Shown: in pieces, positions 44,833 to 63,707 of the stretch | How positions within the stretch are numbered: the stretch's first letter is position 1 | How the letters are laid out: each line of letters starts with the position of its first letter | NCBI GenBank assembly: GCA_051954235.1 | Contig: JBQCHY010000056.1 | Location: 4,499 to 68,498, forward strand | Origin: Xanthobacteraceae bacterium | Lineage (GTDB): Bacteria; Pseudomonadota; Alphaproteobacteria; Rhizobiales; Xanthobacteraceae | DNA length: 64,000 nt | Direction of reading: 5' to 3' | Made by a program: the position numbers and the translations under genes | The notes under the pieces: generated by a model | The model's database searches: none | Told to the model about the DNA's origin: nothing | Seen by the model: only the letters and a program-made list of their open reading frames with translations

Positions 44833-45264
44833 ATGACCGATCTCACGCTCGAAGCCGCCCGCAAGATTGTCGACGTCGCGCTCGCCAAGGGCCTTGAGAA
44901 AAAGCTCAACCCGCTGGCCGTCGCGGTGCTGGACGCGCGGGGTAGCCTGAAGGCTTTCGCGGCGCAGGACGGCACCAGCCTGAAGCGCGGCGAAGTCGCG
45001 CATGGCAAGGCCTACGGCGCGCTGTCGCTGGGCATGGGCTCGCGCGCGCTGTTCAAGCGGGCGCAGGAACAGGCCTACTTCATCGGCGCGGTAAACACGA
45101 TGCTTCAAGGCGCGTTGGTGCCGGTTCCCGGCGGCGTGCTGATCCTTGATGCCAACGGCAGCCTGCTCGGCGCTGTGGGCATCAGCGGCGACACCTCCGA
45201 TAACGACGAGGCCTGCGCCATTGCTGGCATCGAGGCGACGGGTTTCACGGCTAACGCGGGATAA
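44833..45264 (+). CDS. GlcG/HbpS-like (DUF336) protein
   Basis: It has LTLEAARKIVD...AVAVLDARG...GGVLI...GAVGISGDTSDNDEACA. The start is taken at MTDLT. Confidence 0.8.
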   Translation: MTDLTLEAARKIVDVALAKGLEKKLNPLAVAVLDARGSLKAFAAQDGTSLKRGEVAHGKAYGALSLGMGSRALFKRAQEQAYFIGAVNTMLQGALVPVPGGVLILDANGSLLGAVGISGDTSDNDEACAIAGIEATGFTANAG

Positions 45265-45386
45265 CGGAACTACGCGTTGAGCAGATTTCATGATCTGAGT
45301 TCATCGTTATCAACGAACTCAGGTGTAAAGCTCATCGTCCCATTGAGATAAACGAATATCGTTCAACGCGTGGCGTCATAGTTATC

Positions 45387-45413
45387 CCCACGCCGGCGGC
45401 TGGCCGGCGTGGG
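45387..45413. terminator. GC-rich hairpin between convergent genes (CCCACGCCGGC-GGCTG-GCCGGCGTGGG)
   Basis: An 11-bp perfect stem was read from the sequence. No adjacent T/A run is present, so terminator function is uncertain. Confidence 0.3.
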
Positions 45414-45433
45414 AAGCTGGGCACTCAGATGCG

Positions 45434-46762
45434 TTAGCTGCGATAGGCGCTGGCCAGCAGCGACTCGTTCAGCCAACTCGAGGCATGAGGCGCGGTCGTA
45501 GCGATCTGACCGGAATCGGCACGCCCTTGATATCCGCCCGCAAGAGACTGACTCAGGAGGGCGAAGCTCTGGCTATGGTTATGGCCTCCGTATGGCGAAG
45601 ACCAGCCACCCGAGGCCGGAGGATCCGTCACAGTGATGGTCTGCGTTCCCGAAGTCGCAGTAGCACCGCTCACGGGATCCCGTCCGGTCGCGCTTACCGA
45701 GAGCGTCGCGGTCGGGCTGCCCGAGCCGCGATAGGCTGAGTTCAGCACCAGCCCACCCTCGACTTGCGCGGCGGTAAAGGTGATGTTCTTGCCCGAGAAC
45801 GTCTGGCCATCGAGATTAGACGTGATTGACTCGTAACTCGGCAACCCGCGAATATTGACGCTGACGATATCATTTTTGTCGGTCGTCGAAACACCGAGCC
45901 CGAGGTCGACATGGCCACCAGGCTGAACCGAGAGCGTGTTGTCCGCCACGTAGACAGACGGTTTCGTCGCGACCGAGGTCGCCGGCGGCGTCGTGACCTC
46001 AGGCGGTGTGACTGGCGTGGTCGTGACTGGAGGAGTGGTTACCACCGGCGCAGTTGGATCCTCCGTCACGGACGTCAGGCCGGGCGGCGGATCGGCCTGC
46101 AAGCTCGCGGGACTCATCGAACTGAAATAAAGGGTTTTGTAGTCGGTCGTCAATTTCACCCAATCGCTCATTCCGGGCGACGGATTGTTGGCGAATCCAT
46201 CGACGTAGGGAGCGGTGGAGCTGCGCCACCAATCGGCGCCGATATTGGCCACGAGGTTAGCGTTCGGATCGTTGGTCTTCATCTGCGCTTCGACGAAAAC
46301 ACCATCGATGGTCCCGGCCCCGTACGTCCCGCGCGCGCCCGGCCAGAAATGGTCGTTATATCCGCTTCTCGGCGCATCCATCGTCATGCTGCCGTCCGCC
46401 AGCGTCGCCTCGTTCCACGCGACGTTGGCGACACCGGAAAAATCGGCGGTGTAATGCGCGCCGTCGATCGGGTTTGTCGACTGATCCTGCACCAAAACCC
46501 AACCACCATTCGTGAGATGCACGTAGGTTTTGAAGTTGGCTACCTGAACATTGGCACTTGTATTGGTCGTAGCTGCCGCGCCGGCCTCTGGATAAACCTG
46601 TCCCCAACCGGTGACAGACGTGAAATCGGACGGAGGCTTGTCTCCCACGATGGTATTGGTTCCGCTGTACCAATCGTAGCCTTGCGGAACGCCTAACGGG
46701 AAACCCTCGCTATTACCAATGGTGTTTTGATAGATTGCATCAGTCAACGGGCTTGTTGCCAT
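45434..46762 (-). CDS. Unknown-fold protein, paralog 1: N-terminal domain shared with 49810-50727, a Thr/Pro linker and an adhesin-type Ig-like module; no N-terminal signal peptide
   Basis: The start at MATSPL has an AAGGAG RBS. A TTPPVTTTPVTPPEVTTPP linker lies at 45965-46090. The C-terminal VSVNIRGLPSYESI...ITFTAAQVEGGLVL...ATLSVSATG resembles repeat modules of alphaproteobacterial secreted adhesins. Confidence 0.65.
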   Translation of the reverse strand: MATSPLTDAIYQNTIGNSEGFPLGVPQGYDWYSGTNTIVGDKPPSDFTSVTGWGQVYPEAGAAATTNTSANVQVANFKTYVHLTNGGWVLVQDQSTNPIDGAHYTADFSGVANVAWNEATLADGSMTMDAPRSGYNDHFWPGARGTYGAGTIDGVFVEAQMKTNDPNANLVANIGADWWRSSTAPYVDGFANNPSPGMSDWVKLTTDYKTLYFSSMSPASLQADPPPGLTSVTEDPTAPVVTTPPVTTTPVTPPEVTTPPATSVATKPSVYVADNTLSVQPGGHVDLGLGVSTTDKNDIVSVNIRGLPSYESITSNLDGQTFSGKNITFTAAQVEGGLVLNSAYRGSGSPTATLSVSATGRDPVSGATATSGTQTITVTDPPASGGWSSPYGGHNHSQSFALLSQSLAGGYQGRADSGQIATTAPHASSWLNESLLASAYRS

Positions 46763-47068
46763 CCATACTGCTCCTTTGCAGGTCAAAGTTGAAGATGCGA
46801 AATTCCACATGCAAGTCGAAGATGTGAGATCCCGCCTCCACGCGAATGCGTACATCGCGTTGCTTACTCACAACCCCCGTTGTGAGCAGGCTTCAAGCAG
46901 TGGGTTTGGAATGAGAATCACCGCCCCCCAACTGCCATCATGGCTTGGTATTTAGGGAGTGTGGCGAAAAAATCTTCAAAGTGGGATTTATCTACGTGTA
47001 AGTAACAGCCGGGCGCGAAGTAATAGCGCCTTCTTACATTGCGGTGCTTCTCGACGATCTAAAACTCG

Positions 47069-48322
47069 CTAGGATCGCGTGTTTGTTTGACTTCCACCGC
47101 CCGCGGACAATTTCCAGTTGTCTGTTAACAACTCAGAAGAGTGCTGCACCGCGACATGCTTCGTCCACATGTGTTTGATCCACATGCGGACAGCGTCGGT
47201 ATGCCGCTCGAAGAGAAAGTAGAATGCAACCGCAAGTAACAAGCACGGCACGGTGAATGTCAGGTCGAGCCCGATCGATCCAATGGTGAAATCATGCGGA
47301 TTGTCGCTCATGACATTGAGAAACACGAGCATCGGATAATGTATCGCGTAGAGCGAGAAACTCCACTTCGCCGTCTCTTTTCCGAAACGCAAAAATGACG
47401 GTAGTTCGACGTTCCTAAATTCCATCCCGACGATTGCGGCTGCGGTGACCAAGCCGATGATGAGATCCTTCGCGGCCCATGGCGCGAGTAATCCCGCATG
47501 GGCAACGATGGCGGTGCCCACCACGCCGGCGACAAAGAGCACCGACCACAGCAGAATCGGCACTGAAATGGCGTAAATAACAGTCCCGAGCGACCATATC
47601 AGAAAATAGAAAAAGAACTTCAGTCCCGTATGATATCCAAGCTTATCGGAGTGCTCCGCGAAGGCGAACAGGAAGAAAATCACCACGATCAGAAGACCCC
47701 ACAAGGACGATCTGCGAACCGACAGGAATGCGAAGATCAGCAGGTAGTACCAGAACTCGTTGGACAAGCTCCACAAAGCCATATTGCCCGCAAACATCGA
47801 GCAACTGATTGTCTGCAGGAATAGCATATTGCACGAGGCGGTCGCGGGGCCGTAGCTGGCTGTAAAGATCATGAAGCCTTGCTCGAGGTGCCGGTGAGCG
47901 TTCACGAACACCTGCCATCCACTCGCATACCGGGCAGAGACGAAGAAAAGCAAGGACAGCACCAGCGCGGGTATCAGCACCACATACAACCGTGCTGCGC
48001 GCGCAGACAAATAGTCGACGCCGTTGAGTCTTCCCATACTGGCGCGAACCAGCGCTGGCCCGCCCACCAGATAGCCGCTGAGGACAAAGAACACGATGAC
48101 GGCGGACGGCCCTTGCGCGCTGAGGCTCCACAAAACAGAGTACGCATACACGATCGCCGAACCGTAGCTTTCGGCGGGAAGTTGCTCCTGGAAAAGCAAT
48201 TGATACGAATGGAAGAGCACGACCTCAATGGCAGCCAGCCCGCGCACCAGATCCAGCCAATCGGAAAGGGCAGAAGACACTCCCGTCTTTGACCGGAGAT
48301 GGATCATGTCTCTTCTCGCCAT
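47069..48322 (-). CDS. Acyltransferase-3 family membrane O-acyltransferase (ExoZ/OafA/NodX-like, no SGNH domain)
   Basis: It has WLDLVRGLAAIEVVLFH (catalytic His region) and about 10 TMs. The start may be the second Met at 48307, which has a purine-rich RBS. Confidence 0.8.
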   Translation of the reverse strand: MARRDMIHLRSKTGVSSALSDWLDLVRGLAAIEVVLFHSYQLLFQEQLPAESYGSAIVYAYSVLWSLSAQGPSAVIVFFVLSGYLVGGPALVRASMGRLNGVDYLSARAARLYVVLIPALVLSLLFFVSARYASGWQVFVNAHRHLEQGFMIFTASYGPATASCNMLFLQTISCSMFAGNMALWSLSNEFWYYLLIFAFLSVRRSSLWGLLIVVIFFLFAFAEHSDKLGYHTGLKFFFYFLIWSLGTVIYAISVPILLWSVLFVAGVVGTAIVAHAGLLAPWAAKDLIIGLVTAAAIVGMEFRNVELPSFLRFGKETAKWSFSLYAIHYPMLVFLNVMSDNPHDFTIGSIGLDLTFTVPCLLLAVAFYFLFERHTDAVRMWIKHMWTKHVAVQHSSELLTDNWKLSAGGGSQTNTRS

Positions 48323-48405
48323 CGAACTCGACAGGCCTGCGCGTCAAACGCGCAAATCGCCATTCCAGAATGGCCCTAAATAGATACGTGCCAGATACTT
48401 GGAAG

Positions 48406-48419
48406 TTGACGACCATCAA
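48406..48419. promoter_or_regulatory. FNR/FixK-type box TTGACGACCATCAA
   Basis: It matches TTGAT-N4-ATCAA at 9/10 positions and TTGA-N6-TCAA perfectly. It lies in the divergent region 84-99 bp upstream of the acyltransferase start. A TATTTA -10-like hexamer on the minus strand (48377-48382) sits at class-II spacing. Confidence 0.45.
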
Positions 48420-48689
48420 AACGGCGGTCGGTTTTTATCTTCTAGATATTGCAATGAAAGCGAGTGTCCTGGCCGTTCTGCGTGCTCGCCAACTCCAGAC
48501 AACAACGTTCGCGCGTCGAGATGCCAGCGATAACGATGCAAATGGTCACGGTTCGTCATCCGGCGAGAGCGTGGAAGTCTTTCGGTTACAGCGAGGCACC
48601 CCGAAGTCAAAGGACTGAACAGCAATAGTTTCCATTCTGCAAATCACGCGAGCGATTTCCATCAAAGCAAATTTCGAGGCTAGTCGCAG

Positions 48690-49763
48690 ATGACCTTTCA
48701 TGCTGGAGATATGGTTCAAATTCGCAGCAAGCAGGAAATCCTTGCCACGCTCGACAAGAGCGGCCGCCTGGAAGGGCTTCCGTTCATGCCGCAGATGTTC
48801 AAGTACTGCGGCAAGTCGTTCAAGATTTTCAAGGTCGCGCACAAGACCTGTGACACCGTCAACGGCACGGGCGGACGTCGGCTTCCCGGCGGTATCCATC
48901 TCGATCTTCGCTGCGACGGCCAGGCCTACGGCGGTTGCCAGGCCGCGTGTCTGATCTTCTGGAAGGAGGCGTGGCTGAAGCCGGTCTCCGACGCCTCCAT
49001 TGCGGCCGAGCCAGTGCCGGTGCCGCAATCTCCGACAGTCACGCCGATGAACGGCTGTTTGGAAAGCGACGTGTTGCGCGCGACCTCGGTAACAAGCGAT
49101 GGCGAGGAAGCGTATCAGTGCCAAGCCGTGCGCCTGCCCTACTTCACGCGCCTGCTTCCCTGGTGGCGACCGGACCAGTACATCGCCGATTATCTCTCCG
49201 GCAACGTGAACCTTCGCAAGATCTTCAAGGGTCTGATCTACACCGTGTACACCAAGGGAACCAGAGCCTACCATCCGTTCCTCGGGCGACCCGGCCGCTG
49301 GTTCTACAATTGGGTTCAAGCACGGCGCGGCGGCACGCCCTACCCCCGGCAGCGCGGCCGACTTCCGGCGGGCGAAGCCGCCCCTATCGTCGAGCTCAAC
49401 TTGCAACCCGGCGAGCTTGTTCGCACAAAATCCTATGAAGAGATTCTCACGACGGTGAATTTCCAGAACATGAATCGAGGCCTCTTTTTCGATGGAGAGA
49501 TGGTCCCCTATTGCGGCGGCACCTACCGCGTCAAAGCGCGCGTCTCGAAGTTCATCGATGAGAAAACCGGAAAAATGAGATACATGAAGACACCCGGCGT
49601 AATTCTCGAAGACGTCTGGTGCGGGTCATGCTTCAGCACCCGGCGAATGTTTTGCCCACGCGCAATCTATTCGTGGTGGCGTGAGGCCTGGCTGGAACGC
49701 GTTGAAGAAGCACCAGAGATGCTTCACACTCCCACCGTGGCGAAGAGCAACGCGAACGCATGA
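48690..49763 (+). CDS. Cys-rich protein with an internal tandem duplication, function unknown
   Basis: Residues 3-98 and 238-337 align: GD.V.I.S..EIL.TL......GL.F...M..YCG....V........ then a Cys cluster and FWKEAWLKPV / WWREAWLERV. I recognise no family. Confidence 0.65.
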   Translation: MTFHAGDMVQIRSKQEILATLDKSGRLEGLPFMPQMFKYCGKSFKIFKVAHKTCDTVNGTGGRRLPGGIHLDLRCDGQAYGGCQAACLIFWKEAWLKPVSDASIAAEPVPVPQSPTVTPMNGCLESDVLRATSVTSDGEEAYQCQAVRLPYFTRLLPWWRPDQYIADYLSGNVNLRKIFKGLIYTVYTKGTRAYHPFLGRPGRWFYNWVQARRGGTPYPRQRGRLPAGEAAPIVELNLQPGELVRTKSYEEILTTVNFQNMNRGLFFDGEMVPYCGGTYRVKARVSKFIDEKTGKMRYMKTPGVILEDVWCGSCFSTRRMFCPRAIYSWWREAWLERVEEAPEMLHTPTVAKSNANA

Positions 49764-49809
49764 CGCACGTCCGTCAATCAATCCGAAGCCGCATCGGTAA
49801 CGCCGGCCT

Positions 49810-50727
49810 TTATGGCCGGGCGAAGCAAGGCGCCGGCCCGTTTGCGTGGTGGCGAACGATGGCTGAAGCGGCCTTATGCATAGGGCCTGCAAGCTGTGGC
49901 GGCGGGGACGTCTGAAAGTCCGCGGCGCTCCCGGAATAAAAGCGCAAGGTCGACCACTCCGTCGAGAGCTCGATCCAGTTGCTCATGCCGGCCCCCGGAT
50001 TGTTGGCGAAGCCGCTCACGTAGACCGCAGTTGGGTTTCGCCACCAGTCGGCGCCGACATTGGCAACGAGCTTTTTATTCGGGGTATCGGTCTTCATGTC
50101 CATCTGAACGTAGACGCCATCGATGCTTCCAGCCTCGTATGCTCCTCGCCTCGTCAGCCAGAAGTGCGTATTGAAGCCGGCAGTGGGCCCTGGAAGAACC
50201 GCGGTGCCGTTCGGCAGTTCCCGCACCGTGATCTGCCTGGTTTCCCTTGCACCGAAGTCGGCAGCATAGTGCCCGCCGGCAACGTCGTCGGTAGTCTGAT
50301 CCTGCACCAACAGCCATTCATGGGTGGCGCGACGGCGAACGTAGGTCTTTGCATTGGCAACCATGATGTTTGCGTCCGGATTTGGCTCTTGTGGCGAGCC
50401 GACCTCCGGATAGACCTGCGCCCATCCTGTCACCGCCGAGAAATCGGAAGGCGGCGCTCCGTTTCCCGGCGGCGCGTACGAACCACCGCACCACGCAAAA
50501 TGCCCGGGCACTCCGACGGCATAACCCTCGCTTTCACCGCGCGTGTTCTGGTCGATTGCGTCGAGGACCGGCGAGGTTATCGTCTTGTCGACGGACGACG
50601 CCGTCGCTTGGCTTGCCGATGCCGACCAATCTGGCACAGCATGGACGAGCAAAGCCGCGACGATCGCCACTGCCGGCGCAGCGGATTTAGCGGCGAAGAG
50701 CCGTAAAGGGCGGTAGCACTGATGCAT
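49810..50727 (-). CDS. Unknown-fold secreted protein, paralog 2 (signal peptide plus the shared domain only)
   Basis: The start is taken at MHQCYRPLRLFAAKSAAPAVAIVAALLVHA...SASA (Sec-type signal). The mature part aligns with 45434-46762 along about 220 aa (DAI.QNT.G.SEG, PPSDF..VTGW.QVYPE, W.LVQDQ, GADWWR, GFANNP..GMS.W). Confidence 0.65.
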   Translation of the reverse strand: MHQCYRPLRLFAAKSAAPAVAIVAALLVHAVPDWSASASQATASSVDKTITSPVLDAIDQNTRGESEGYAVGVPGHFAWCGGSYAPPGNGAPPSDFSAVTGWAQVYPEVGSPQEPNPDANIMVANAKTYVRRRATHEWLLVQDQTTDDVAGGHYAADFGARETRQITVRELPNGTAVLPGPTAGFNTHFWLTRRGAYEAGSIDGVYVQMDMKTDTPNKKLVANVGADWWRNPTAVYVSGFANNPGAGMSNWIELSTEWSTLRFYSGSAADFQTSPPPQLAGPMHKAASAIVRHHANGPAPCFARP

Positions 50728-50808
50728 CCTGCGCCGCCTCTGCCATTGGATATCGCGAACCTGATGCCGATACAGGAATGCGCGCACGTTCGCGCTGAAA
50801 AGCTCCTG

Positions 50809-52290
50809 TTACTCCGCTGCCTGGATTTCCCTGAGATGATTGCGCACCGATCGCTTGACCACTTCCTCGAGCGCAGTTTCGACTTCGACTTCGTCCTCCT
50901 GCCGGCGTGCTCGCATGAATTCCAGCAACACCGCAAATCCCGAACCCAACGCGATGCCGCCCAGCACGACAATCAGGATCAAGTGCGGCGTTCGAGGAAA
51001 CATCGGCAAAGCCGGACGCTCCGCGCGTTGCACCACCCGAACGCTCGAGAGCTGTGTCTTCTTGGCGATGTCCTGATTGATCTGCTCCTCGATCACCCGA
51101 CTGCCATAATGATCGGCGGCGGTCGACGCCCGAGTGAGTACGCGCTTCAGCCTGTCATACTCGGCCTGCTTCGAGGACAAGGATCCTAACTCATCATTCA
51201 CCTTGCCGATCTCACCTACCAATGCCTTCTCGACGTTGAGGGCGCCATTGAGCTCCGTGTTGACCTTGAGCAGGCCCGCCATGGCATCCTGGTATACCTT
51301 GATCAGCAATAGCGGCGGCGCATCATCGCTAGGGACCGTCCCGACCGAACTGCTGCCTGCTTTGTAATCGCGCCCGCGGAGATCGCTCACGATCGCGGTG
51401 ACGGTCCGCGATTGGTGGACGGGTCGCAGGGTCACGAGTTGATCGAGGATAGCCTGCTTCTGACCTTTCCAGTCTTCAATGGAACTGCGCGTTGTGGACA
51501 GCTTCGCATCGAGCGCATCGACGCGCTGCAGGAGCAATTTCCGCTGATCGTCGACAGAATAAATTCCGGCCTCGACCGAAAAATTCCGAAGATCCGTGCC
51601 CGCCTTCTCGGCCTCCTGCTCCAGGCGCTTGGTCTGCTGCTGATAGAAAACCTCGGCGCCCGGAATTTGGACGAGGTCGGCCTGCATAGCGATCAGTGCG
51701 TTCGCGAGTTTGTTCAGAAATTCTGCCGCGACAGCCCGATCCGGATGGCGGAATGACACCCGCAGAATATCGGTGCGTCCCTCGCCCCTCGCTGAAATCA
51801 GCTCGCGCAGCTTAGCAATCAGCTTCTGGTGATCGTCCTTCGTTTCGTCTGCGCTGCCGCCAGCGCTGTTCGCCTCAGCGCGAGGTTTGAGAAAATCGAA
51901 CTGCGGAGGCAGTGCCTGAAGGCTCGATGTCAGCCACGACCCCGCCACGAACATGGGGCTCGATTTGTCCTTCTTGAACAAACGGCCGTAGCCGATCTCC
52001 GAAGCCGCCAGACCGATGACCTGATCGGTCGTTGCGATTCGCGCCAGCGACTCGATGCGGCTTGTCAGATCAGGGCCTTCGCCGAGGATACTCCCTGCCG
52101 ACCGATCCTTGATGCCCTGCCCAACCCGCAACAACGTATACGACTCGTAGCGGTCGCCGACGGCGCTGTGGAAGAGAAATCCTGCAGCCGATGCGAGGAT
52201 GAGAGCAACATATATCACCCGCCGCCGTCGCCAGAGGATCGGCAATATTTCGTTGAGCCGCGGAGTGTGATTGTTCGCACCGTGTTGCAC
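50809..52290 (-). CDS. GumC/ExoP-N-type polysaccharide co-polymerase (PCP-2 without kinase domain)
   Basis: It has a Wzz-type N-terminus (TM plus YESYTLLRV), a long coiled coil, and a C-terminal TM followed by only about 35 aa with no Walker motif. The ORF opens with a GTG at 52320. The internal GTG at 52288-52290 has a GGAG RBS 8 nt upstream. Confidence 0.75.
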   Translation of the reverse strand: MQHGANNHTPRLNEILPILWRRRRVIYVALILASAAGFLFHSAVGDRYESYTLLRVGQGIKDRSAGSILGEGPDLTSRIESLARIATTDQVIGLAASEIGYGRLFKKDKSSPMFVAGSWLTSSLQALPPQFDFLKPRAEANSAGGSADETKDDHQKLIAKLRELISARGEGRTDILRVSFRHPDRAVAAEFLNKLANALIAMQADLVQIPGAEVFYQQQTKRLEQEAEKAGTDLRNFSVEAGIYSVDDQRKLLLQRVDALDAKLSTTRSSIEDWKGQKQAILDQLVTLRPVHQSRTVTAIVSDLRGRDYKAGSSSVGTVPSDDAPPLLLIKVYQDAMAGLLKVNTELNGALNVEKALVGEIGKVNDELGSLSSKQAEYDRLKRVLTRASTAADHYGSRVIEEQINQDIAKKTQLSSVRVVQRAERPALPMFPRTPHLILIVVLGGIALGSGFAVLLEFMRARRQEDEVEVETALEEVVKRSVRNHLREIQAAE

Positions 52291-52367
52291 AGCCAATGCT
52301 CCAGATTGGAAACAAACCACGCGTCGGGTTGTACGAGCGAATGATGCGCCCTGATGGCCTGCCCAAG

Positions 52368-52381
52368 TTGACGATCATCAA
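52368..52381. promoter_or_regulatory. FNR/FixK-type box TTGACGATCATCAA
   Basis: It matches the FNR consensus at 9/10 positions and is identical at 13/14 positions to the box at 48406. It lies in the divergent region between the PCP gene and the Crp/Fnr regulator gene. Confidence 0.45.
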
Positions 52382-52624
52382 GTCGCGGGTTTTGTCGGCG
52401 TTGTGACGATCTGCAGGCGACGGTCAGCGGCTCGATCATGGCAATCCTCGATGTCAGATATCGCTCGGTCACGCCCGACTTTGGCCCACGCAAGCCTGTG
52501 CGGAAGGACTAACCCCAACGGCGAATAGTACTCCCGAAGAGTGCGCGGAGCGCGCCGACCCCTCGTGTATCAAAGAACCCGCAGAACCCGAGCAGCGTGC
52601 GAACAGCGTAACGGAGGGTCGAGT

Positions 52625-53284
52625 ATGGGTATGCCGCAAATTGGAACTTGTGGGGCCGAACCGCTGGCTTACGGGGCGCTCCGCAAAGAAATCCCCGAAA
52701 GGCGCCCCCAATCGGCACCATTGCTGCTCGTCCCGCGCGGGCGCGTGCTGTTCTGGGAAGGCGAGCATCAGGCCCAAAAAATCCAGATCGTGAAGGGCGT
52801 GGTGCGGGCCGTCCAACTGCTCGAAAACGGAAACCGTCAAATCCTGACGTTCTTCTGGCCCGGCCACGTCATCATGCCGACCCGCTCGTCATGTCAGCGG
52901 ATAACGGCCGAGGCGGTCACCAATTGCTGGGTGCAACGCTCCACAGCGACCGGCACCTGCCAGGAAGAGGACCCCTGCGGCGCCCGTCAGATTCTGATCG
53001 ATACGCTGGCACTGGTTGCGACACGAAATCACAAGAACAGCGTCGCCCGGATCGCAGACTTTCTACTTCGCATCAGAAAGCACCTTCCCAGCGATCCGAA
53101 ACGGCCGCTGGCGCTCTCGCTGCTGCTGCCACGGGCGGATATCGCGGATCACCTGGGGACGTCCATCGAAACCGTTTGCCGCATCCTTGCGGAGTTCAAG
53201 ATGAAAGGGCTGATCGACCTGCCGAACCGAAAGACCATTCGATATCTCGATCTGCCCGGCCTTGCACAAGTCGCCGGCGAATAG
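52625..53284 (+). CDS. Crp/Fnr-family transcriptional regulator (FixK-like, no N-terminal Cys cluster)
   Basis: It has a cNMP-like beta-roll (VLFWEGEHQAQKIQIVKGVVRAVQLLENGNRQILTFFWPG) and an HTH LGTSIETVCRILAEF. The E..CR resembles the E..SR recognition motif of the FNR/FixK class. The start is at MGMPQ with a GGAGGG RBS. Confidence 0.85.
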   Translation: MGMPQIGTCGAEPLAYGALRKEIPERRPQSAPLLLVPRGRVLFWEGEHQAQKIQIVKGVVRAVQLLENGNRQILTFFWPGHVIMPTRSSCQRITAEAVTNCWVQRSTATGTCQEEDPCGARQILIDTLALVATRNHKNSVARIADFLLRIRKHLPSDPKRPLALSLLLPRADIADHLGTSIETVCRILAEFKMKGLIDLPNRKTIRYLDLPGLAQVAGE

Positions 53285-53329
53285 CTCATTGCAACAGCAT
53301 TTCAACGCTCGCGATCAAAGAGGCGTCGA

Positions 53330-54796
53330 ATGTCTCTCGTCCATGACACCAACCTCATAACCGGCCTGGTTCATTCGAATTCCCGCAGCCAGCCTGTTGC
53401 CCCGATCTCGCTCAACGTCATGTCGCCGCTGATTGCGATATTCGATCTCGTCTGGATCGTCGCACTGGGAATTACCGTAGGTCTTCTCTATGACCACCTG
53501 GCTCTTGGTGGGCACAGCACGGCGCAAAATCACCTCGGCGCGGGAATCGCCGTGGCCGCGCTCTACTTAGGGTTCGCTCATGCGGCCGAGCTTTATCGCG
53601 GACCGAACCTCCTCCAGGTCAAATGGCAAGTCGAACATGCCACGCTTGCCTGGCTGCTGGCGTTCGTGTGCCTTGCATCCATTGCGTTCTTACTGAAAAC
53701 GGGAGCGGCATTCTCGCGCGGCGAGATGCTGCTATTCTTTAGCAGCGGCATCATTGCCAGTGCGGCAATGCGATTGATCGTTGCGCGGGTTTGCCGCTTC
53801 GTTCTCGCGTCCGGCGCGTTGAAATCCACCCGGGTCGTGTTGGTCGGATTGGCGGACGAACTCGCCGCCAATGGCGCATTGTCCGCGCTGGAAAAATACG
53901 GTTATGCCGTAGTCAGCGTCTTCCCGTTACCCACAGACGAAAATCCGGCCTCCGCCCGCGACACGCTGAAAGCCTATTTGCGGCAGGTGACCCGTTACGT
54001 CAGGGACATGAATATCGACGAGATCATCGTCGCGATTCCCTGGCGTTCGACGGAACTCCTACGCGAGGTCGAAGACGAGTTACGCGTGCTGCCGATACAG
54101 GTCACGCTGGTGCCTGACACCATTGCAGGTCAGGTATTGGATCACCCGTTGGCTGAACTCGGTCCGACAAAGGCAGTGCAACTCCAGCGGCCACCCCTGA
54201 ATGCCTTCCAGCGCAATCTGAAGCAAGGCATCGACCGCATACTGGCCGCGACGTCCCTGTTCCTTTTGATACCCTTCCTGGCCGTGATCATCGCGGCGAT
54301 ACGGATGGAATCGCCGGGGCCGGCGCTCTTTCTCCAAACGAGGGTCGGCTTCAATGGACGGCCATTCAAAATTTTCAAGTTCAGAACGATGTCCACGCTT
54401 GATGACGGGCCGGTCATCGTTCAAGCTACCAAGAACGACAGCCGCATCACACACCTCGGCGCACTGTTGCGCAAGCTTAGCATCGACGAACTGCCGCAAC
54501 TGATCAACGTGCTACGCGGCGACATGTCGCTGGTCGGCCCGCGTCCGCACGCGCTTGCACACGACAACGAATACGATCGGCTGATCGCGACCTACGCCAT
54601 ACGGCACAAGATGAAACCCGGCATCACCGGTTGGGCCCAGATCAACGGATTCCGTGGCGAAACACCTGAAATCGGCATGATGATGCGCCGGGTGGAGAGC
54701 GACCTGTGGTACATCGAGTCATGGTCGCCATGGCTCGACATCCGCATCATGCTGCTCACCGTGGTCCGGGTCCTGCAATCGGAAAACGCCCGTTGA
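53330..54796 (+). CDS. Polyprenyl-phosphate hexose-1-phosphate transferase (WbaP/ExoY family, full-length polytopic form)
   Basis: The 488-aa protein has N-terminal TMs, a central Rossmann-like domain and a C-terminal PALFLQTRVGFNGRPFKIFKFRTM...GDMSLVGPRP. Confidence 0.9.
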   Translation: MSLVHDTNLITGLVHSNSRSQPVAPISLNVMSPLIAIFDLVWIVALGITVGLLYDHLALGGHSTAQNHLGAGIAVAALYLGFAHAAELYRGPNLLQVKWQVEHATLAWLLAFVCLASIAFLLKTGAAFSRGEMLLFFSSGIIASAAMRLIVARVCRFVLASGALKSTRVVLVGLADELAANGALSALEKYGYAVVSVFPLPTDENPASARDTLKAYLRQVTRYVRDMNIDEIIVAIPWRSTELLREVEDELRVLPIQVTLVPDTIAGQVLDHPLAELGPTKAVQLQRPPLNAFQRNLKQGIDRILAATSLFLLIPFLAVIIAAIRMESPGPALFLQTRVGFNGRPFKIFKFRTMSTLDDGPVIVQATKNDSRITHLGALLRKLSIDELPQLINVLRGDMSLVGPRPHALAHDNEYDRLIATYAIRHKMKPGITGWAQINGFRGETPEIGMMMRRVESDLWYIESWSPWLDIRIMLLTVVRVLQSENAR

Positions 54797-55224
54797 TCTA
54801 AACGGCCTACCTCTTGGCCCGGCATAAGCCCAGCTTTGCTCAAGCCGTCGTGATCAGGATCGCCGGCGCGATTGTCAAATTTCGGTATCGTTATTGAGAA
54901 CGCTCATATCGATGCGTCCGCGGTGCGTATGCTGCGTACTCTCCTCTCTTCCGAGAAGGAAGGCAGATGCCGCAGACAGACAATCCGAATTCCTTACGCT
55001 CGCATCGAGACACCGCCCCTGTTTCGCAAGATCACCATAAGGGACGTCTTGATTGGGCAGTCCTCGTCGTCCTGTTCGCATTGAGCTGCACCTTGGGATG
55101 GATTTCTCTCTTGTTGTGGGGCGCCATGCGCGCCTTTCAAATCGCCCTTCTCTGAACGCGAGGCTCGATGTCGCGCCGCCCAAGGAAATATCATCAGCGA
55201 CGTTTGATACCGATGTACCGCTTA

Positions 55225-55238
55225 TTGACGGATAGCAA
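55225..55238. promoter_or_regulatory. FNR/FixK-type box variant TTGACGGATAGCAA
   Basis: It matches the FNR consensus at 8/10 positions and fits the TTG(A/C)-N6-(T/G)CAA form. It lies 115 bp upstream of the rfbF-like start, with a CTAAAT -10-like hexamer at 55259-55264 at class-II spacing. Confidence 0.3.
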
Positions 55239-55352
55239 CTTCGCTTTGCCCCCTTGGTCTAAATTTTCAACCACACGTACGCACTTTCTCAATTCTCACC
55301 GCTCGTCGTCAGACAATGCGTCATTCACGCACACATTGCAAAGGTCGCTGAG

Positions 55353-56168
55353 ATGAAGACAGTTCTGTTCTGCGGCGGTCTCGGCACGCGTATCCGGGAC
55401 GTAGCTGAAAATATCCCGAAACCGATGGTTCCGGTCGGCGACAAGCCGATCCTCTGGCATCTGATGCACTATTACAGTCAGTTCGGGCACAAGGATTTCG
55501 TCCTTTGCCTCGGCTACAAAGCGAACGTAATCAAGGAATACTTTCTGAATTACAAACCGCAGGCTTACGCCGACTGCGTCGTCTCGGGCTTCGGCAACGA
55601 GGTCGAGATTCTCGGAAATCCGCAGCAGGACTGGCGCATTGCGATGATCGATACCGGCATCTGGCGCAATATCGGCCAGCGGCTATGGGCCGTGCGTGAT
55701 CACGTCGTGGGCGAGGAGATGTTTCTCGCCAACTACAGCGACGGTCTCTCTGACGTCAATCTCACCGAAATGATCGAAACCTTCCGCATCAGCGGAAAGG
55801 TCGCCTGCTTCACGGCGGTGCGGCCATCATTCAGTCTGCATCTGGTCGATATGCATCCGGATGGAAAAGTCGAACGGATCCGCGCCAGCCAGGAAGCCGA
55901 TCTTTGGATCAATGGCGGCTTCTTCATCTTCCGAAAGGAGATATTCGACTATATGCGCGACGGCGACGAACTCGTCGAAGCGCCATTCCAACGCTTGATC
56001 GAGGCGGATCAACTCATGGCGTTCCGGCATGAGGGATTCTGGCGTCCGATGGATACGTTGAAGGACAAGCAGATCCTCGAGGATCTCGTCGACAAGGGCA
56101 CGATGCCCTGGCTTCTCAATTTGAATCCCGGCATGGCCCCGGCCCGGACCGAGAGGAAAATGGGATGA
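55353..56168 (+). CDS. rfbF: Glucose-1-phosphate cytidylyltransferase
   Basis: It has MKTVLFCGGLGTRIRDVAENIPKPMVPVGDKPILWHLM...LCLGYK, and the 271-aa length is typical of RfbF/DdhA. Confidence 0.9.
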   Translation: MKTVLFCGGLGTRIRDVAENIPKPMVPVGDKPILWHLMHYYSQFGHKDFVLCLGYKANVIKEYFLNYKPQAYADCVVSGFGNEVEILGNPQQDWRIAMIDTGIWRNIGQRLWAVRDHVVGEEMFLANYSDGLSDVNLTEMIETFRISGKVACFTAVRPSFSLHLVDMHPDGKVERIRASQEADLWINGGFFIFRKEIFDYMRDGDELVEAPFQRLIEADQLMAFRHEGFWRPMDTLKDKQILEDLVDKGTMPWLLNLNPGMAPARTERKMG

Positions 56169-56818
56169 AGCGCTTCAAGCTCGCCGATGCAAATGAGCGA
56201 TTGTCCGTGCTTTGCATCGGCGCGCATTCCGACGACATCGAGATCGGCGCCGGCGCAACGATCCTCGGTTGGATCGATCGCGGTGTGCGCCTCGACGTCC
56301 ATTGGGTGGTTCTGAGTGCGCAAGGGCCGCGCGGCGACGAGGCGCGCTCGTCCGCCGAGGCATTTCTCGCTGGCTCGGAACGCGCGGTGATCGAGTTGGC
56401 GGAATTCAAGGACGGCTTTTTCCCGCATCAGGGGGCCGAGATCAAGATCTGGTTCGAGGCTCTGAAACGACGTGCATCGCCCGACGTGATCCTGTGCCAC
56501 ACGCGCCACGACGCGCATCAAGACCATCGCGAAGTCTGCGCATTGACGTGGAACACCTTTCGCGACCACGCGATCCTCGAATACGAAATTCCGAAATGGG
56601 ATGGCGACCTGAGCCAGCCGAATGTCTTCATTCCAGCTACCCGAACGCTGATGGAGCGCAAGGCCAAACTCCTGCGCCAGCATTTCGGCACGCAGCGCTC
56701 AAAGGACTGGTTTGACGCGGAAACATTCATGGGTCTGGCACGGCTGCGCGGCATGGAATGCCGCGCGCCGGACGGATTCGCCGAAGCCTTTCACGGACGG
56801 AAACTAACGGTGCAGTAA
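56165..56818 (+). CDS. PIG-L/LmbE-family deacetylase
   Basis: It has [16 protein letters not shown] and [13 protein letters not shown] metal-binding motifs, and a 4-nt overlap with rfbF. Confidence 0.85.
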
Positions 56819-56834
56819 AGCTAAGGAAACCGCC

Positions 56835-57908
56835 ATGCGTGTGATGGTCACAGGACACTTGGGTTATATTGGAACCGTGATGGTGCCGATGCTGCTGGCA
56901 TCTGGTCACGACGTGGTGGGCTTCGACAGCAATCTCTATGAGCGATGCACCTTCGAGGCCGGAGGCCGCATCCAGCCTGTGCCGCAGATCCGCAAGGATA
57001 TTCGCGACGTCACGCGCGAGGACCTCAGGGGGCTCGACGCCATCATTCATCTCTGCGCCTTGTCGAACGATCCGCTCGGGAATTTTCGTCCTCAACTGAC
57101 CTACGACATCAACCACGCGGGCAGCGTGCGGCTGGCGACGCTGGCGAAGGAAGCGGGCGTCAAACGCTTCCTGTTGGCCTCCTCCTGCAGCAACTACGGA
57201 CAGGCCGGCGAGGCCATGCTTGATGAGACCGGGGCGCTCAATCCGGTGACGGCCTATGGCGAATCCAAGGTCCGGTCCGAGCGCGATATCTCTACACTGG
57301 CCGGTGATGGCTTCTGCCCGACCTATATGCGCCCGGCCACCGCCTATGGCGTCTCGCCGCGAATCCGTTTCGATATCGTGCTCAACAATCTGGTCGCCTG
57401 GGCGGTGACCAACGGGCTGATCTATCTGAAGTCGGACGGATCGCCATGGCGGCCGATCGTCCACATCGAAGACATTTCGCGCGCCTTCATCGCGGCGCTC
57501 GAAGCGCCGGTGGATGTGGTCTTCAATCAGGCCTTCAACGTCGGCCAGACTGAGCACAACTATCGCATCAGCGATATCGCCAAGATCGTCGCCGATGTCG
57601 TGCCGGGCTGCCGGCTCGAATACGCCCCTGATGCAAGCCCCGATACGCGGTCCTACCGGGTCAATTTCGACAAGATCGCGCGCATGCTGCCGGCCTTCAA
57701 GCCACAATGGGATGCACGGCGCGGCGCCGAACAACTCTATAGCGCCTATCTCCGTACGAAGTTGACACTCGAGGAGTTCGAAGGTCCGCGCTACCAGCGC
57801 ATCGGTCACATCCAGAAGCTGATTGCCGACGGCATCCTTGGCGACGATCTGAAACACCGCTCGGCCGTTCATTCCGAATCCATCCGCCAGTTCGCTGTCG
57901 GTGGCTAG
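56835..57908 (+). CDS. Extended-SDR NAD-dependent epimerase/dehydratase (role in the pathway unresolved)
   Basis: It has [12 protein letters not shown] (Rossmann) and a SSCSNYG...YGESK catalytic triad region. It is not the typical RfbG (TGHTGFKG) signature. Confidence 0.8.
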
Positions 57909-57922
57909 ACCAGACACAAGCC

Positions 57923-58501
57923 ATGATCTTTACCGAAACAAAGCTCAAGGGTGCGTTCATCATCGATCTCGACCGCAAGACGGACGAGCGAGGTTTCTTC
58001 GCGCGCACCTTCTGCCAGCACGAATTCCGCGAGCATGGGCTTCGGTCCATGACCGCCCAAACCAATGTCGCCCTGAACACCAGGAAAGGCACGCTACGCG
58101 GCATGCACTTCCAGTATCCGCCGGCCGCCGAAACCAAGCTGGTGCGCTGCACGCGCGGCGCCCTGATCGATATTATCGTCGACCTGCGTCCCGAGAGCCC
58201 GACCTATCTCGATCACATCCGCGTCGAGCTCAACGAAGACAACATGAGAGCACTGTACGTGCCGGAACGCTTCGCCCACGGATTTCAGGCGCTCCGCGAC
58301 AATACCGTGACGAGCTACCAGATGGGCGAATTCTATAAGCCGGACGCGGAAAGCGGATTTCGCTACGACGATCCACTGCTGGGACTGGCATGGCCGCTGC
58401 CGGTGTCCGTGATGTCGCCGAAAGACCTGGCTTTGCGCTCGTTACGTGACATCGAAGACGACGTGAAATGCAGAATGTCGCGCGCATCGACGGCAGCATG
58501 A
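57923..58501 (+). CDS. RmlC-family NDP-4-keto-6-deoxyhexose 3,5-(or 3-/5-)epimerase (cupin)
   Basis: It has DERGFFARTF, LRGMHFQ, KLVRCTRGALIDIIVDLR, LYVPERFAHGFQAL and YDDPLLGLAWP. Confidence 0.85.
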   Translation: MIFTETKLKGAFIIDLDRKTDERGFFARTFCQHEFREHGLRSMTAQTNVALNTRKGTLRGMHFQYPPAAETKLVRCTRGALIDIIVDLRPESPTYLDHIRVELNEDNMRALYVPERFAHGFQALRDNTVTSYQMGEFYKPDAESGFRYDDPLLGLAWPLPVSVMSPKDLALRSLRDIEDDVKCRMSRASTAA

Positions 58502-58555
58502 CCAACATCATGGTCAGCCGGTGCCGGAAGATGCCGAACTGATCAGGGAGCAGCC

Positions 58556-59818
58556 ATGATTCTGAATTCGTTGCCGGTCCTCGCGGCTGCCTCCAAGTGC
58601 CGCCATTGCCGATCCGAACTGACGCTGACGCTGGTGGATCTCGGGCTGTCCCCGGTCGCCAATGACTATGTCGATCCGGAAAATGCCGGGAAAGCCGAAC
58701 CGTTCTATCCGCTGAAGGCCTTGGTCTGCCGCAATTGCCGTCTGGTCCAGACCTCCGACATGCTGGCGGCCGACGATATCTTCCGCGCCGACTACGCTTA
58801 CTTTTCCTCGCATTCGACGTCCTGGCTGACTCATGCCCGCACCTATGTCGAGGACATGATCACACGCTTCGGTCTCACCGAAGCATCACGCCATGTCGAA
58901 ATCGCCTCGAACGACGGCTACCTGCTGCAGTATTCGATGGCCAAAGGCATCCAGTGCCTGGGTATCGAACCCTGCAAAAGCGTCGCGCTCGCCGGCAAGG
59001 CGAAAGGCATCGACACCCGCATGCGGTTCTTCGGCGTGCAGTATGCGCACGAACTGGCCCGCGAGGGCTGGACTGCCGATCTGATCACGGCCAATAACGT
59101 GTTGGCACACGTGCCGGATATCAACGATTTCGTCGGCGGCGTAAAAATATTGCTCGCCCCGGAAGGCGTCGCGACCTTCGAGGTGCAGCATCTTCTCAAG
59201 CTGATGCAACTCCACCAATTCGACACTATCTATCACGAGCATTTTTCCTACCTGTCGCTGATCGCCGGACAGCGCATCTTCGCCAGCGCCGGCTTGCGCG
59301 TGTTCGATGTCGAATTGCCCAAGTCGCATGGTGGGTCCATCCGCTTTTTTGTCTGTCACGAACAGGCCAGTCACCCGCAAACCGCCCGGGTGGCGGAGCC
59401 GCTGGCGGCCGAGCGAGCCTATGGCCTTGATGGCGACGCCGCCTATGTCGCGTGGAATGAATCGGTGAAGGCGACCAAGCGCGATCTGCTTGATCTCCTG
59501 ATCGGCCTGAAGCGTAACGGCAAGAAGATCGTCGGCTACGGCGCGCCGGCCAAAGCCGCGACGCTCCTCAATTATTGCGGCATCGGGACTGACTTCATCG
59601 AGTTCACCGTGGATCGCGCGCCGTCAAAACAGGGACGCTATGTGCCCGGCGTACGGCTTCCCATCTTCCCTCCCGAAGCCATCCTCGAGGCGAAGCCCGA
59701 TTTCGTGCTGATCTTCCCATGGAATCTGAAGAACGAAATCAAAGCGCAGATGAGCGAAATCAAGTCATGGGGCGGCCGGTTCATTGTGCCGGTGCCGAAG
59801 GCAACCATTGAAGATTAG
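58556..59818 (+). CDS. NDP-hexose C-methyltransferase (Zn-ribbon plus class I SAM MTase plus C-methyltransferase C-terminal domain; TylC3/NovU-like)
   Basis: It has CRHCRSEL...LSPVANDY...LVCRNCRLVQ (a 4-Cys zinc site), HVEIASNDGYLL (SAM motif I-like) and ANNVLAHVPD. The 420-aa length is typical. Confidence 0.75.
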   Translation: MILNSLPVLAAASKCRHCRSELTLTLVDLGLSPVANDYVDPENAGKAEPFYPLKALVCRNCRLVQTSDMLAADDIFRADYAYFSSHSTSWLTHARTYVEDMITRFGLTEASRHVEIASNDGYLLQYSMAKGIQCLGIEPCKSVALAGKAKGIDTRMRFFGVQYAHELAREGWTADLITANNVLAHVPDINDFVGGVKILLAPEGVATFEVQHLLKLMQLHQFDTIYHEHFSYLSLIAGQRIFASAGLRVFDVELPKSHGGSIRFFVCHEQASHPQTARVAEPLAAERAYGLDGDAAYVAWNESVKATKRDLLDLLIGLKRNGKKIVGYGAPAKAATLLNYCGIGTDFIEFTVDRAPSKQGRYVPGVRLPIFPPEAILEAKPDFVLIFPWNLKNEIKAQMSEIKSWGGRFIVPVPKATIED

Positions 59819-59933
59819 CCATTGTAGATAGAAACTCAGCCATCTGGGTTGCGAGCAATGCATTGAAAGGGCAGTCTCTTTAGACCGGACGTTTTAAGGT
59901 CCGGAATGTTGAAGGCAGGTTTTGTCGATTTTA

Positions 59934-60662
59934 ATGTCGAGATTCTTGGAGAACACAACAGCGCTGGTTACGGGTGCGAGTTCCGGCATCGGGCGCGCGA
60001 CCGCGAAACTTCTCGCTCACTCCAAGGTAAAGGTCGCCTTGGTCGGGCGGCGCCAGTCCTTGCTTGAAGACCTCGCAGCGGAATGCGGCCCGCGCGTATC
60101 CGCTTATCCTTGCGATATGACGGATGACGCACAACTCAAAGAGCTTGCGGATCGGATACGCGTCGATCTTTCCAGGATCGATATCCTGGTCCATTCGTCG
60201 GGAATCATCAAACTGGGAACGACAGAGACATCGCCTGTCTCCGATTTCGACAGCCAGTATGCAGCCAACGTTCGGGCCCCCTACACCCTGACGCAGTTGC
60301 TGCTACCGCTTCTGCGCGAGGCATCCGGGCAAATTATTGTCGTGAATTCCTCGATCACCCGCGCGCACAATACGGCCGGCCGCGGCACCTACGCCGCGAC
60401 CCAACACGCCGTCCACGCAATGACGAACGCTCTGCGCGATGAAGTCAATGAGTTCGGCGTGAGAGTGACGAGCATTTTTCCCGGCACCACCGCAACCCAA
60501 CGACAGATGGATCTTCACGCGATATCCGGCAGACGATACGATCCCGATCGTATGTTACAGCCGGAAGACGTCGCCGAAGCGGTGTTGTTCGCACTCACCA
60601 TGGGCAGGACAGCAGAAGTTACCGATCTCTACCTACGTCCCATGCTCAAACCTCTACCCTGA
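59934..60662 (+). CDS. Classical short-chain dehydrogenase/reductase (candidate ketoreductase)
   Basis: It has ALVTGASSGIGRA (TGxxxGxG), NSSITR and YAATQHAV (YxxxK-like, with Q in place of K). The ATG at 59934 is preferred over the TTG at 59922. Confidence 0.8.
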   Translation: MSRFLENTTALVTGASSGIGRATAKLLAHSKVKVALVGRRQSLLEDLAAECGPRVSAYPCDMTDDAQLKELADRIRVDLSRIDILVHSSGIIKLGTTETSPVSDFDSQYAANVRAPYTLTQLLLPLLREASGQIIVVNSSITRAHNTAGRGTYAATQHAVHAMTNALRDEVNEFGVRVTSIFPGTTATQRQMDLHAISGRRYDPDRMLQPEDVAEAVLFALTMGRTAEVTDLYLRPMLKPLP

Positions 60663-60719
60663 AGGGCCGCCACCGGTCGCGATCGATCGATCGGAACGAT
60701 CCGAAAAGGAAGGCATCCA

Positions 60720-62036: not shown

Positions 62037-62090
62037 CAAGCCTGCTCCGGACAAAACTCCTGCAGCTGGAAACCAACGTCAACATTGGCC

Positions 62091-63380: not shown

Positions 63381-63707
63381 CTTCAAACTTCCTTCGCCGA
63401 TATCTGCCGTCAAGTTAGCGCGCGGCGCGCCTAACATGCAGCCTTACCGTTTTGCATAGGGACGCCTGCCAGGCCCGTCATCGAACGCCGGTTTTGCGCC
63501 TCGGTGGCGAAAGCAAATGACATCGCGTGGAACATCTGCTGATTGGGGCGATTGTGGACGATTTCGCCCATGCTGATCTCATGAGCGAGCTAACGCTTGG
63601 ATTGAATGCCGGAACGGCGTCTGCCACGGTTCAGGGCTCGAAAATCTCGAGCCCGTTCGACCTCTAACCTGCTCGCCGTCCCGGCTACGCCAAACTTGCG
63701 GCCAGTT

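Follow-up and report, generated by a model that had tools for sequence, protein, structure and literature searches.

Wzx/Wzy loci for the synthesis of O-antigen, exopolysaccharide (EPS) or capsule combine an initiating transferase, a nucleoside diphosphate (NDP)-sugar operon, glycosyltransferases of the GT2 and GT4 families, a Wzy_C-like protein, a multi-pass membrane protein, a co-polymerase with two transmembrane segments and an AT3 acyltransferase. The succinoglycan (exo) system of Sinorhizobium meliloti follows the same logic with its initiating transferase, co-polymerase and AT3 acetyltransferase, and also encodes two homologous extracytoplasmic proteins, of which one carries an N-terminal signal and the other lacks it: ExoK is Sec-secreted and ExsH is type I-secreted. 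In the FixK/FNR regulons of Bradyrhizobium and its relatives, the published FixK box is TTGA-N6-TCAA, and the FixK targets discussed are respiratory and denitrification genes, unlike the locus described here (PMC5582078). Features recalling each of these systems are found at positions 45434–54796 of a 64,000-nucleotide stretch of DNA from a Xanthobacteraceae bacterium (contig JBQCHY010000056.1), hereafter called the window. We consider it likely that this region, with its regulatory, assembly and modification genes, forms one end of a FixK-box-coordinated heteropolysaccharide locus of the Wzx/Wzy type.

The region holds, from left to right, the genes for a protein P1, an AT3 acyltransferase, a cysteine-rich protein (CysR), a P1 paralogue (P2), a polysaccharide co-polymerase (PCP)-like protein, a Crp/Fnr-family regulator and a large phosphoglycosyl transferase (PGT). 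The open reading frame (ORF) list, Pfam and NCBIfam agree with the first-pass annotation on the positions and families of these seven ORFs, and gene calls were taken from an identical metagenome contig. In contrast to Wzx/Wzy loci, the flippase and the polymerase are weakly or not assignable here and no OPX or Wza was seen, whereas the P pair, CysR (both without Pfam models) and the FixK-type boxes are additions. As a gene cluster this is an otherwise ordinary surface-polysaccharide locus, and the interest lies in the box signature and in two large unannotated families.

Four exact copies of the box consensus TTGAYN4RTCAA (TTGAYNNNNRTCAA) were found in the window versus 0.31 expected, a number reached by none of 100 shuffles of the window. 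All four match the published FixK box and fall in promoter regions of this polysaccharide locus; none is assigned a strand. The first (TTGACGACCATCAA, 48406–48419) is located in the divergent AT3/CysR intergenic region, approximately 100 bp upstream of the AT3 start, and the second (TTGACGATCATCAA, 52368–52381) in the divergent region between the PCP and regulator genes, approximately 85 bp upstream of the PCP start. The other two (TTGACGAGGGTCAA, 63732–63745, and TTGACACTCATCAA, 63870–63883) share the divergent region between a membrane-protein gene and an operon past the window, which was read from the Logan metagenome contig L163 (100% identical to window positions 54515–64000). That operon carries methyltransferase, Wzy-like, GT4 and GT2 genes, and a fifth FixK-type box at L163:1885 precedes the last GT4 gene. 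Boxes occupy the same positions in the relatives L001, L002, L081, L082, L084, L122 and L161. In an alignment of the AT3/CysR intergenic region from six orthologous loci, the box stands as a conserved island amid diverged sequence. A second conserved island at 48370–48385 (AAATAGATACG), between the box and the AT3 start and approximately 30 bp from the box centre, sits at the position expected for the -10 element of a class II FixK/FNR promoter. The distance of approximately 85–105 bp between boxes and gene starts, together with this -10-like element, is consistent with class II activation. Sigma-70 promoter and terminator scans of positions 45000–55500 gave no more sites than scans of shuffled sequence.

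The association of boxes with P genes extends beyond close relatives. Loci carrying P genes (P loci) contain 96 boxes in 643 kb versus 1.2 expected from shuffles, an approximately 80-fold enrichment, and CysR-only loci contain 10 boxes in 1,428 kb. Among 84 boxes, 62 lie outside conserved genes, with a median distance of approximately 100 bp to the next gene start, and in distant P loci boxes were also found upstream of PCP, nucleoside triphosphate (NTP)-transferase and P genes. The shared regulation proposed in the first-pass annotation therefore finds its counterpart in common Crp/Fnr-type cis boxes; since these are conserved, enriched and placed in locus promoters, it is the best-supported part of that interpretation. 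From the presence and conservation of the boxes we infer their binding and a signal: the boxes upstream of the AT3(-P1) and PCP-P2 operons and the two at the right end would coordinate transcription, presumably bound by the locus regulator or by a global FixK/FNR protein. The combination of multiple FixK/FNR boxes, a P pair and a PCP marks a sub-type of polysaccharide loci in soil Xanthobacteraceae and Bradyrhizobium-like bacteria, which suggests that surface-polymer synthesis in this sub-type is wired to a Crp/Fnr-type signal. In the literature we found nothing specific describing a FixK-regulated or FixK-box-bearing polysaccharide locus.

The regulator gene itself (52625–53284, plus strand; a 219-amino acid gene call in an ORF from 52541) is transcribed divergently from the PCP gene and its product matches HTH_Crp_2 with an E-value of 1.2e-15. 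FNR and FixK have a recognition helix of the form E--SR; the corresponding helix of this protein is IETVCRIL (ETVCR, i.e., E--CR) and resembles theirs. The regulator has no N-terminal FNR-type cysteine cluster, with only one cysteine in the first 60 of its 219 residues, and is therefore FixK-like rather than FNR-like, as the cluster for a [4Fe-4S] oxygen sensor is missing. It is also distant from FixK, scoring 68.8 bits against the 300-bit FixK cut-off.

We further counted the neighbours of P genes in 26 metagenome loci spanning 10 kb or more, and found PCP in 16, a different NTP-transferase/epimerase pair in 14, AT3 in 8, Crp in 8, PGT in 7 and CysR in 4. De novo clustering agrees and adds three further neighbours, namely a LuxR-type response regulator, a GT2 and a Wzy_C-like protein. 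P genes do recur near PCP, AT3, Crp and PGT genes, but a wider co-occurrence of the seven genes as a unit is not supported: the complete order is confined to the close relatives L002, L081, L082 and L161 (P2 at least 73% identical), and a partial window order is seen in L001 (a short contig), L084, L122 and L123. Cultured relatives with this locus type include Bradyrhizobium lablabi SZCCT0422 and Pseudorhodoplanes sinuspersici. Such a restriction of the full gene order to a narrow clade could reflect a recent mosaic without functional unity, in which rearrangement has brought CysR, AT3-P1 and PCP-P2 together beside an ordinary O-antigen-type locus, with the boxes being no more than a part of the global FixK/FNR regulon of the organism. 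That scenario would also explain why the local regulator is missing from most P loci, and why CysR lacks its usual partners, a Wzx-like flippase and a GT2, as direct neighbours here, the related GT2 of this genome (44% identical) lying past the window end, approximately 19 kb from CysR. We regard a mosaic as very unlikely, however: CysR-only polysaccharide loci do not show the box enrichment that P loci have in the same taxa, the PCP-P, AT3-P and Crp-PGT adjacencies recur at 47–60% protein identity, and CysR is also present, at 77–93% identity, inside the P-type loci L003, L084, L122 and L123.

The FixK-coordinated locus that we favour is larger than the region itself. The left flank in the window is devoted to unrelated metabolism (a CoA-transferase, a Liv ABC transporter, a LysR gene and an enoyl-CoA hydratase). 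To the right of 54796, where the first-pass annotation had placed the boundary of a self-contained EPS cassette, polysaccharide genes carry on through 55353–63380 and past the window end. The next 7.7 kb past position 64000 (L163:1–7711) encode a methyltransferase, a Wzy_C-like protein of 417 amino acids and GT4, GT2 and GT4 glycosyltransferases, and an AMP-dependent ligase comes after the last GT4. Because the right flank and L163 hold sugar-nucleotide, methyltransferase, Wzy_C-like and glycosyltransferase genes, the region is the left third of one surface-polysaccharide locus of approximately 27 kb, extending from 45.4 kb to approximately 7.7 kb past the window end, as judged by Pfam/NCBIfam annotation and synteny. 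The assembly and modification role assigned earlier to the region is borne out, and it indeed contains no glycosyltransferase or polymerase; it is not self-contained, since the sugar-nucleotide genes, a candidate flippase/polymerase, a methyltransferase and three glycosyltransferases lie to its right. No match to the region was found among PLSDB plasmids by megablast.

The nucleotide-sugar operon on the plus strand (55353–62036, from Pfam/NCBIfam annotation) encodes a glucose-1-phosphate (G1P) cytidylyltransferase-like NTP transferase, a PIG-L protein, an SDR epimerase/dehydratase, an RmlC-type 3,5-epimerase, a sugar 3-C-methyltransferase (E-value 5e-79 to TylC3/TcaB9 structures), a second SDR protein and a DUF4910 protein (60720–62036, E-value 4.5e-104). 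Modified-sugar operons with DUF4910 (CA_C2195-like) proteins have been described in which DUF4910 accompanies nucleotidyltransferase, epimerase/dehydratase and methyltransferase genes (PMC4000134), and the operon matches this description, its DUF4910/DUF2172/HTH_47 protein being encoded beside genes of these three kinds. Two degenerate FixK-like boxes with two mismatches each (TTGATACCGATGTA and TTGACGGATAGCAA) are located at 55204–55238, within the 556 bp that separate the PGT gene from this operon. Downstream of the operon on the minus strand, the gene at 62091–63380 encodes a multi-pass membrane protein with approximately ten hydrophobic segments, a candidate flippase or polymerase that has homologues in the P loci L003 and L086. 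Its identification as the Wzx-like flippase that accompanies CysR elsewhere was rejected, as the hidden Markov model (HMM) of that cluster gave an E-value of 2.

The PGT gene (53330–54796, plus strand) starts 45 bp downstream of the regulator gene and encodes an initiating polyprenyl-phosphate hexose-1-phosphate transferase of 488 amino acids, with Bac_transf (2.4e-63) and CoA_binding_3 (4.9e-20) domains. It passes the WcaJ-type equivalog TIGR03023 (439 bits, cut-off 410.75) and fails the WbaP (Gal-1-P transferase) model TIGR03022 (235.9 bits against 403). The PCP-like protein (50809–52290, minus strand; a 493-amino acid gene call in an ORF to 52320) falls just under the gathering cut-offs for Wzz (24.1 bits, cut-off 25.5) and GNVR (19.8 bits, cut-off 27.7) and matches TIGR03007 (71.6 bits against a cut-off of 278.85) as well as TIGR03017; its topology is the canonical one, with two hydrophobic segments (residues 25–43 and 440–458) and a long region between them. 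No kinase or P-loop family match was found and only about 35 residues follow the second transmembrane segment, so the protein is not a PCP-2a of the Wzc/ExoP type. Its gene ends 81 bp upstream of P2, and the two therefore probably form one operon. The AT3 gene (47069–48307, minus strand; a 412-amino acid gene call in an ORF to 48322) encodes a putative polysaccharide O-acyltransferase that consists of AT3 alone, without an SGNH domain. The match to PF01757 (E-value 1.6e-18, 67.3 bits against a 31-bit cut-off) covers profile positions 2–325 of 326, i.e., the full-length domain, and no NCBIfam equivalog matched. In every P locus with an AT3 gene, AT3 adjoins a P gene, co-directionally in the clade of the window and divergently in L139 and L141.

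Taking family functions as a guide, the WcaJ-type transferase would start the repeat unit on undecaprenyl phosphate, the nucleotide-sugar operon would provide an NDP-6-deoxy-3-C-methyl-type sugar, and the GT4, GT2 and GT4 enzymes and the methyltransferase past the window would finish the unit. The multi-pass membrane protein and the Wzy_C-like protein would flip and polymerise it, the kinase-less PCP would set the chain length and AT3 would O-acylate the polymer. P1 and P2 would form a conserved extracytoplasmic beta-sandwich pair, one membrane-anchored or periplasmic and the other leaderless with an Ig-like extension, which most likely bind or cleave the polymer of their own locus; cleavage specifically is a tentative proposal.

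P1 (45434–46762, minus strand; 442 amino acids, ORF to 46855) is a long member of its family, composed of a P domain, a Pro/Thr linker, an Ig-like region and a tail. Its gene call begins at M32 of the ORF (MATSPL), which leaves the protein without a signal peptide, and it has no hydrophobic segment. P2 (49810–50727, minus strand; 305 amino acids) is a short member with an N-terminal signal/anchor segment (residues 10–28) followed by a beta-sandwich domain, and is 100% identical to a protein of a Xanthobacteraceae bacterium metagenome-assembled genome (MAG) at NCBI. As had been proposed, the two are true paralogues (49% identity over 241 amino acids, E-value 1e-75). A full HMM search returned a P family of 740 clusters at 50% identity, and P loci typically pair a short copy that begins with a hydrophobic segment with a long copy that is leaderless and carries an extension of 100–577 amino acids. 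Six Trp residues and Y106, Q142, H188, R194, D227 and N243 are conserved across 90 diverse members. In L160 (Bradyrhizobium sp. JYMT SZCCT0428), two P genes lie near genes for a C39-peptidase ABC exporter, an HlyD-like partner and a radical-SAM/SPASM protein; this exporter may be a route out of the cell for leaderless P1-type proteins, or it may serve unrelated peptide export.

Neither P1 nor P2 has a match in Pfam or NCBIfam, including GH16 or any other catalytic family, and neither matched PHROGs; P2 found nothing among PDB sequences by phmmer or by a profile search, the latter at E-values up to 10, and an IMG/VR pattern scan with the P alignment yielded no close relative. The AlphaFold2 model of P2 is a beta-sandwich (pLDDT 75, pTM 0.76). 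In a Foldseek search of BFVD, it matches a predicted Siphoviridae tail protein structure over 253 columns (E-value 5e-10) and two other predicted phage proteins (4e-9 and 2e-7). P domains are fused to fn3, Ig, PG_binding, Laminin_G_3, DUF642 and phage Tail_P2_I domains. For example, among the relatives P0273, P0258 and P0309 of the representative library, one protein of 1170 amino acids has three P domains and ends in Tail_P2_I, and proteins of 1,262–1,826 amino acids carry fn3, Ig, SH3_3, Laminin_G_3 and PG_binding_1 modules. The family thus resembles phage tail fibres, tailspikes and receptor-binding proteins in predicted structure and in its fusions to Tail_P2_I, whereas P1 and P2 are chromosomal, encoded inside a biosynthetic locus and without phage context. 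Together, the sequence and model comparisons point to an extracytoplasmic carbohydrate-binding or carbohydrate-cleaving module. The P domain, which has no Pfam model, ties biosynthetic loci to phage tail proteins and is a candidate new fold of this kind.

A number of observations weigh against the FixK-coordinated Wzx/Wzy-type locus or against parts of it. The membrane protein at 62091–63380 has no match to Pfam or any other family, and the Wzy_C match of the 417-amino acid protein is weak and under the cut-off (E-value 3e-4), so that the flippase and polymerase roles are guesses. No OPX/Wza outer-membrane export gene was seen in the locus, and the product could therefore be an O-antigen, a capsule or EPS. 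By de novo clustering, only 10 of 40 P loci contain the local regulator, and hence the boxes may instead be part of a regulon under global FixK/FNR control; the counts are inflated by several near-duplicate metagenome loci. For the P pair, the Foldseek search of the P2 model against PDB returned beta-sandwich matches only, none below 1e-3 (best E-value 4.8e-3, TM-score below 0.25), and the likeness to phage tail proteins suits binding as well as cleavage. A classical two-carboxylate glycosidase was set aside for the P domain, as D227 is the only universally conserved acidic residue.

These features of the P domain bear on whether P1 and P2 are enzymes at all. They could be non-catalytic lectins, adhesins or matrix proteins, comparable to the Rap lectins of Rhizobium leguminosarum, with the phage relatives being receptor-binding modules. 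A beta-sandwich with six conserved Trp residues and a single universally conserved carboxylate would fit such a role, as would the fusions to Ig, fn3, DUF642 and Laminin_G_3 and the weak top PDB folds of P2, which are staphylococcal adhesins, fimbrial subunits and ConA-like lectins. However, the polar set Y106/Q142/H188/R194/D227/N243 exceeds what most pure binding sites require and would also suit a lyase-type active site, and in multidomain relatives, P0309 among them, the P domain is the sole module without a known binding-type assignment; we consider a purely non-catalytic role somewhat unlikely. A more specific proposal is that the P domain defines a polysaccharide depolymerase family, plausibly lyase-like through the Y/Q/H/R/D/N set, which is common to phage tails and polysaccharide loci, is deployed as an anchored and a secreted copy under FixK control, and is modulated by O-acylation in the subset of loci with AT3. 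Taken as a whole this is unlikely; if true, low oxygen or some related signal would set the length or release of the surface polymer.

The first-pass annotation had proposed a self-contained EPS cassette in which acylation by AT3 could gate depolymerisation, as ExoZ acetylation does for cleavage by ExoK and ExsH in Sinorhizobium; on this model P1 and P2 would be the glycanases. It can be noted in its favour that AT3 adjoins a P gene wherever it is present in P loci, in two arrangements, that one P protein with and one without a signal segment mirror ExoK and ExsH, and that phage tail proteins and large extracellular proteins with fn3/Ig modules contain the P domain. This scenario is nevertheless highly doubtful: further genes of the locus lie to the right, CysR falls outside the set, and P1 and P2 have no GH16 or other match in Pfam, NCBIfam or PDB sequences, the GH16 structure 1ajo being an insignificant fold match to P2 (E-value 0.013, TM-score 0.22). 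Moreover, AT3 is present in only 8 of the 26 long P loci, which argues that P proteins mostly work without it, and acylation gating depolymerisation is an analogy with ExoZ/ExoK only. The resemblance to succinoglycan is one of logic and not of membership, because P1 and P2 fail every GH16 test, whereas ExoK and ExsH are GH16 enzymes, and because the PCP lacks the kinase domain of ExoP; in addition, ExoY is a small phosphoglycosyl transferase, unlike the 488-amino acid WcaJ-type enzyme of this locus.

CysR (48690–49763, plus strand), encoded divergently from AT3, is a cytoplasmic protein whose helical middle domain is flanked by two SH3-like barrel modules. It contains 11 cysteines, 10 of them invariant in the family, and the internal duplication noted earlier was recovered, its N- and C-terminal modules of approximately 105 amino acids being 30% identical (E-value 2e-14). 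There are more than 7,690 homologues, approximately 52–60% identical to the window protein across phyla, and no match to Pfam, NCBIfam, PDB sequences (phmmer and profile) or PHROGs. The 206 matches among GTDB species representatives include Bradyrhizobium, Afipia, Mesorhizobium and Nitrospira as well as MAGs labelled Verrucomicrobiia, Syntrophaceae and Bryobacteraceae. In a model with a pLDDT of 80, two SH3-like barrels enclose the helical domain, and Foldseek against PDB returned generic SH3-like barrels only (nitrile hydratase beta, a Mind-bomb repeat and L21e; TM-scores 0.18–0.28), which is uninformative on function. The Cys/His pattern of the N-terminal module suggests a metal site, and CysR is probably metal-binding.

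Within 10 kb of CysR in 80 loci, we found NTP transferase in 56, PIG-L in 52, SDR epimerase/dehydratase in 47, RmlC-type epimerase in 47, C-methyltransferase in 30 and DUF4910 in 23, compared with P1/P2 in 3, AT3 in 2 and PCP in 1. De novo clustering finds a Wzx-like flippase in 52 loci and a GT2 in 44; these are the commonest immediate neighbours, directly adjoining CysR in 38 and 21 loci, respectively, and the typical order among loci L004–L080 is NTP transferase, PIG-L, Wzx-like flippase, CysR, GT2. On NZ_CP088148, a plasmid of Mesorhizobium ciceri, the CysR gene shares 4 bp with the Wzx gene, and PGAP labels CysR a 'hypothetical protein'. Co-occurrence in these 80 loci assigns CysR functionally to a sugar-nucleotide/Wzx/GT2 module and not to P1, P2 or AT3, and the three unannotated proteins are not supported as the single functional set proposed earlier, as CysR is tied to this other module across phyla and accompanies P1, P2 or AT3 only in a narrow clade. 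Present in Proteobacteria, Nitrospirota, Verrucomicrobiota and other phyla, CysR is a target for work on branched or unusual O-antigen sugars.

A conserved gene order is shared by loci L041, L042, L046, L047, L054, L060, L065, L067, L069 and L071 of the photosynthetic Bradyrhizobium clade: DUF4910, RmlC-like, 3-C-methyltransferase, SDR, CysR, PIG-L, NTP transferase and PGT. The C-methyltransferase and DUF4910 proteins of these loci are 72–80% identical to those of the window. An 11-gene 'gdh' O-antigen cluster has been described in photosynthetic Bradyrhizobium (Busset et al. 2016; PMC4743980), and the CysR cluster may be this (bradyrhizose) cluster, an identity that NCBIfam annotation of the B. 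oligotrophicum locus L041 did not settle. The CysR family is mentioned neither in that paper nor in PMC4000134.

Finally, positions 1–35000 of the window hold a separate, second surface-polysaccharide locus of lower GC content (approximately 50–55% versus 60%). It encodes an SGNH protein, two GT4 glycosyltransferases, two Asn-synthase-like proteins, Wzz, a WbpM-like dehydratase and WbpA/B/D/E-like proteins; a small PGT, PglD-like and DegT proteins, a GlcNAc 2-epimerase, ManC and a Wzy_C ligase-like protein; and a UDP-Glc dehydrogenase, a GNAT/FemAB protein, Wzx and a formyltransferase.

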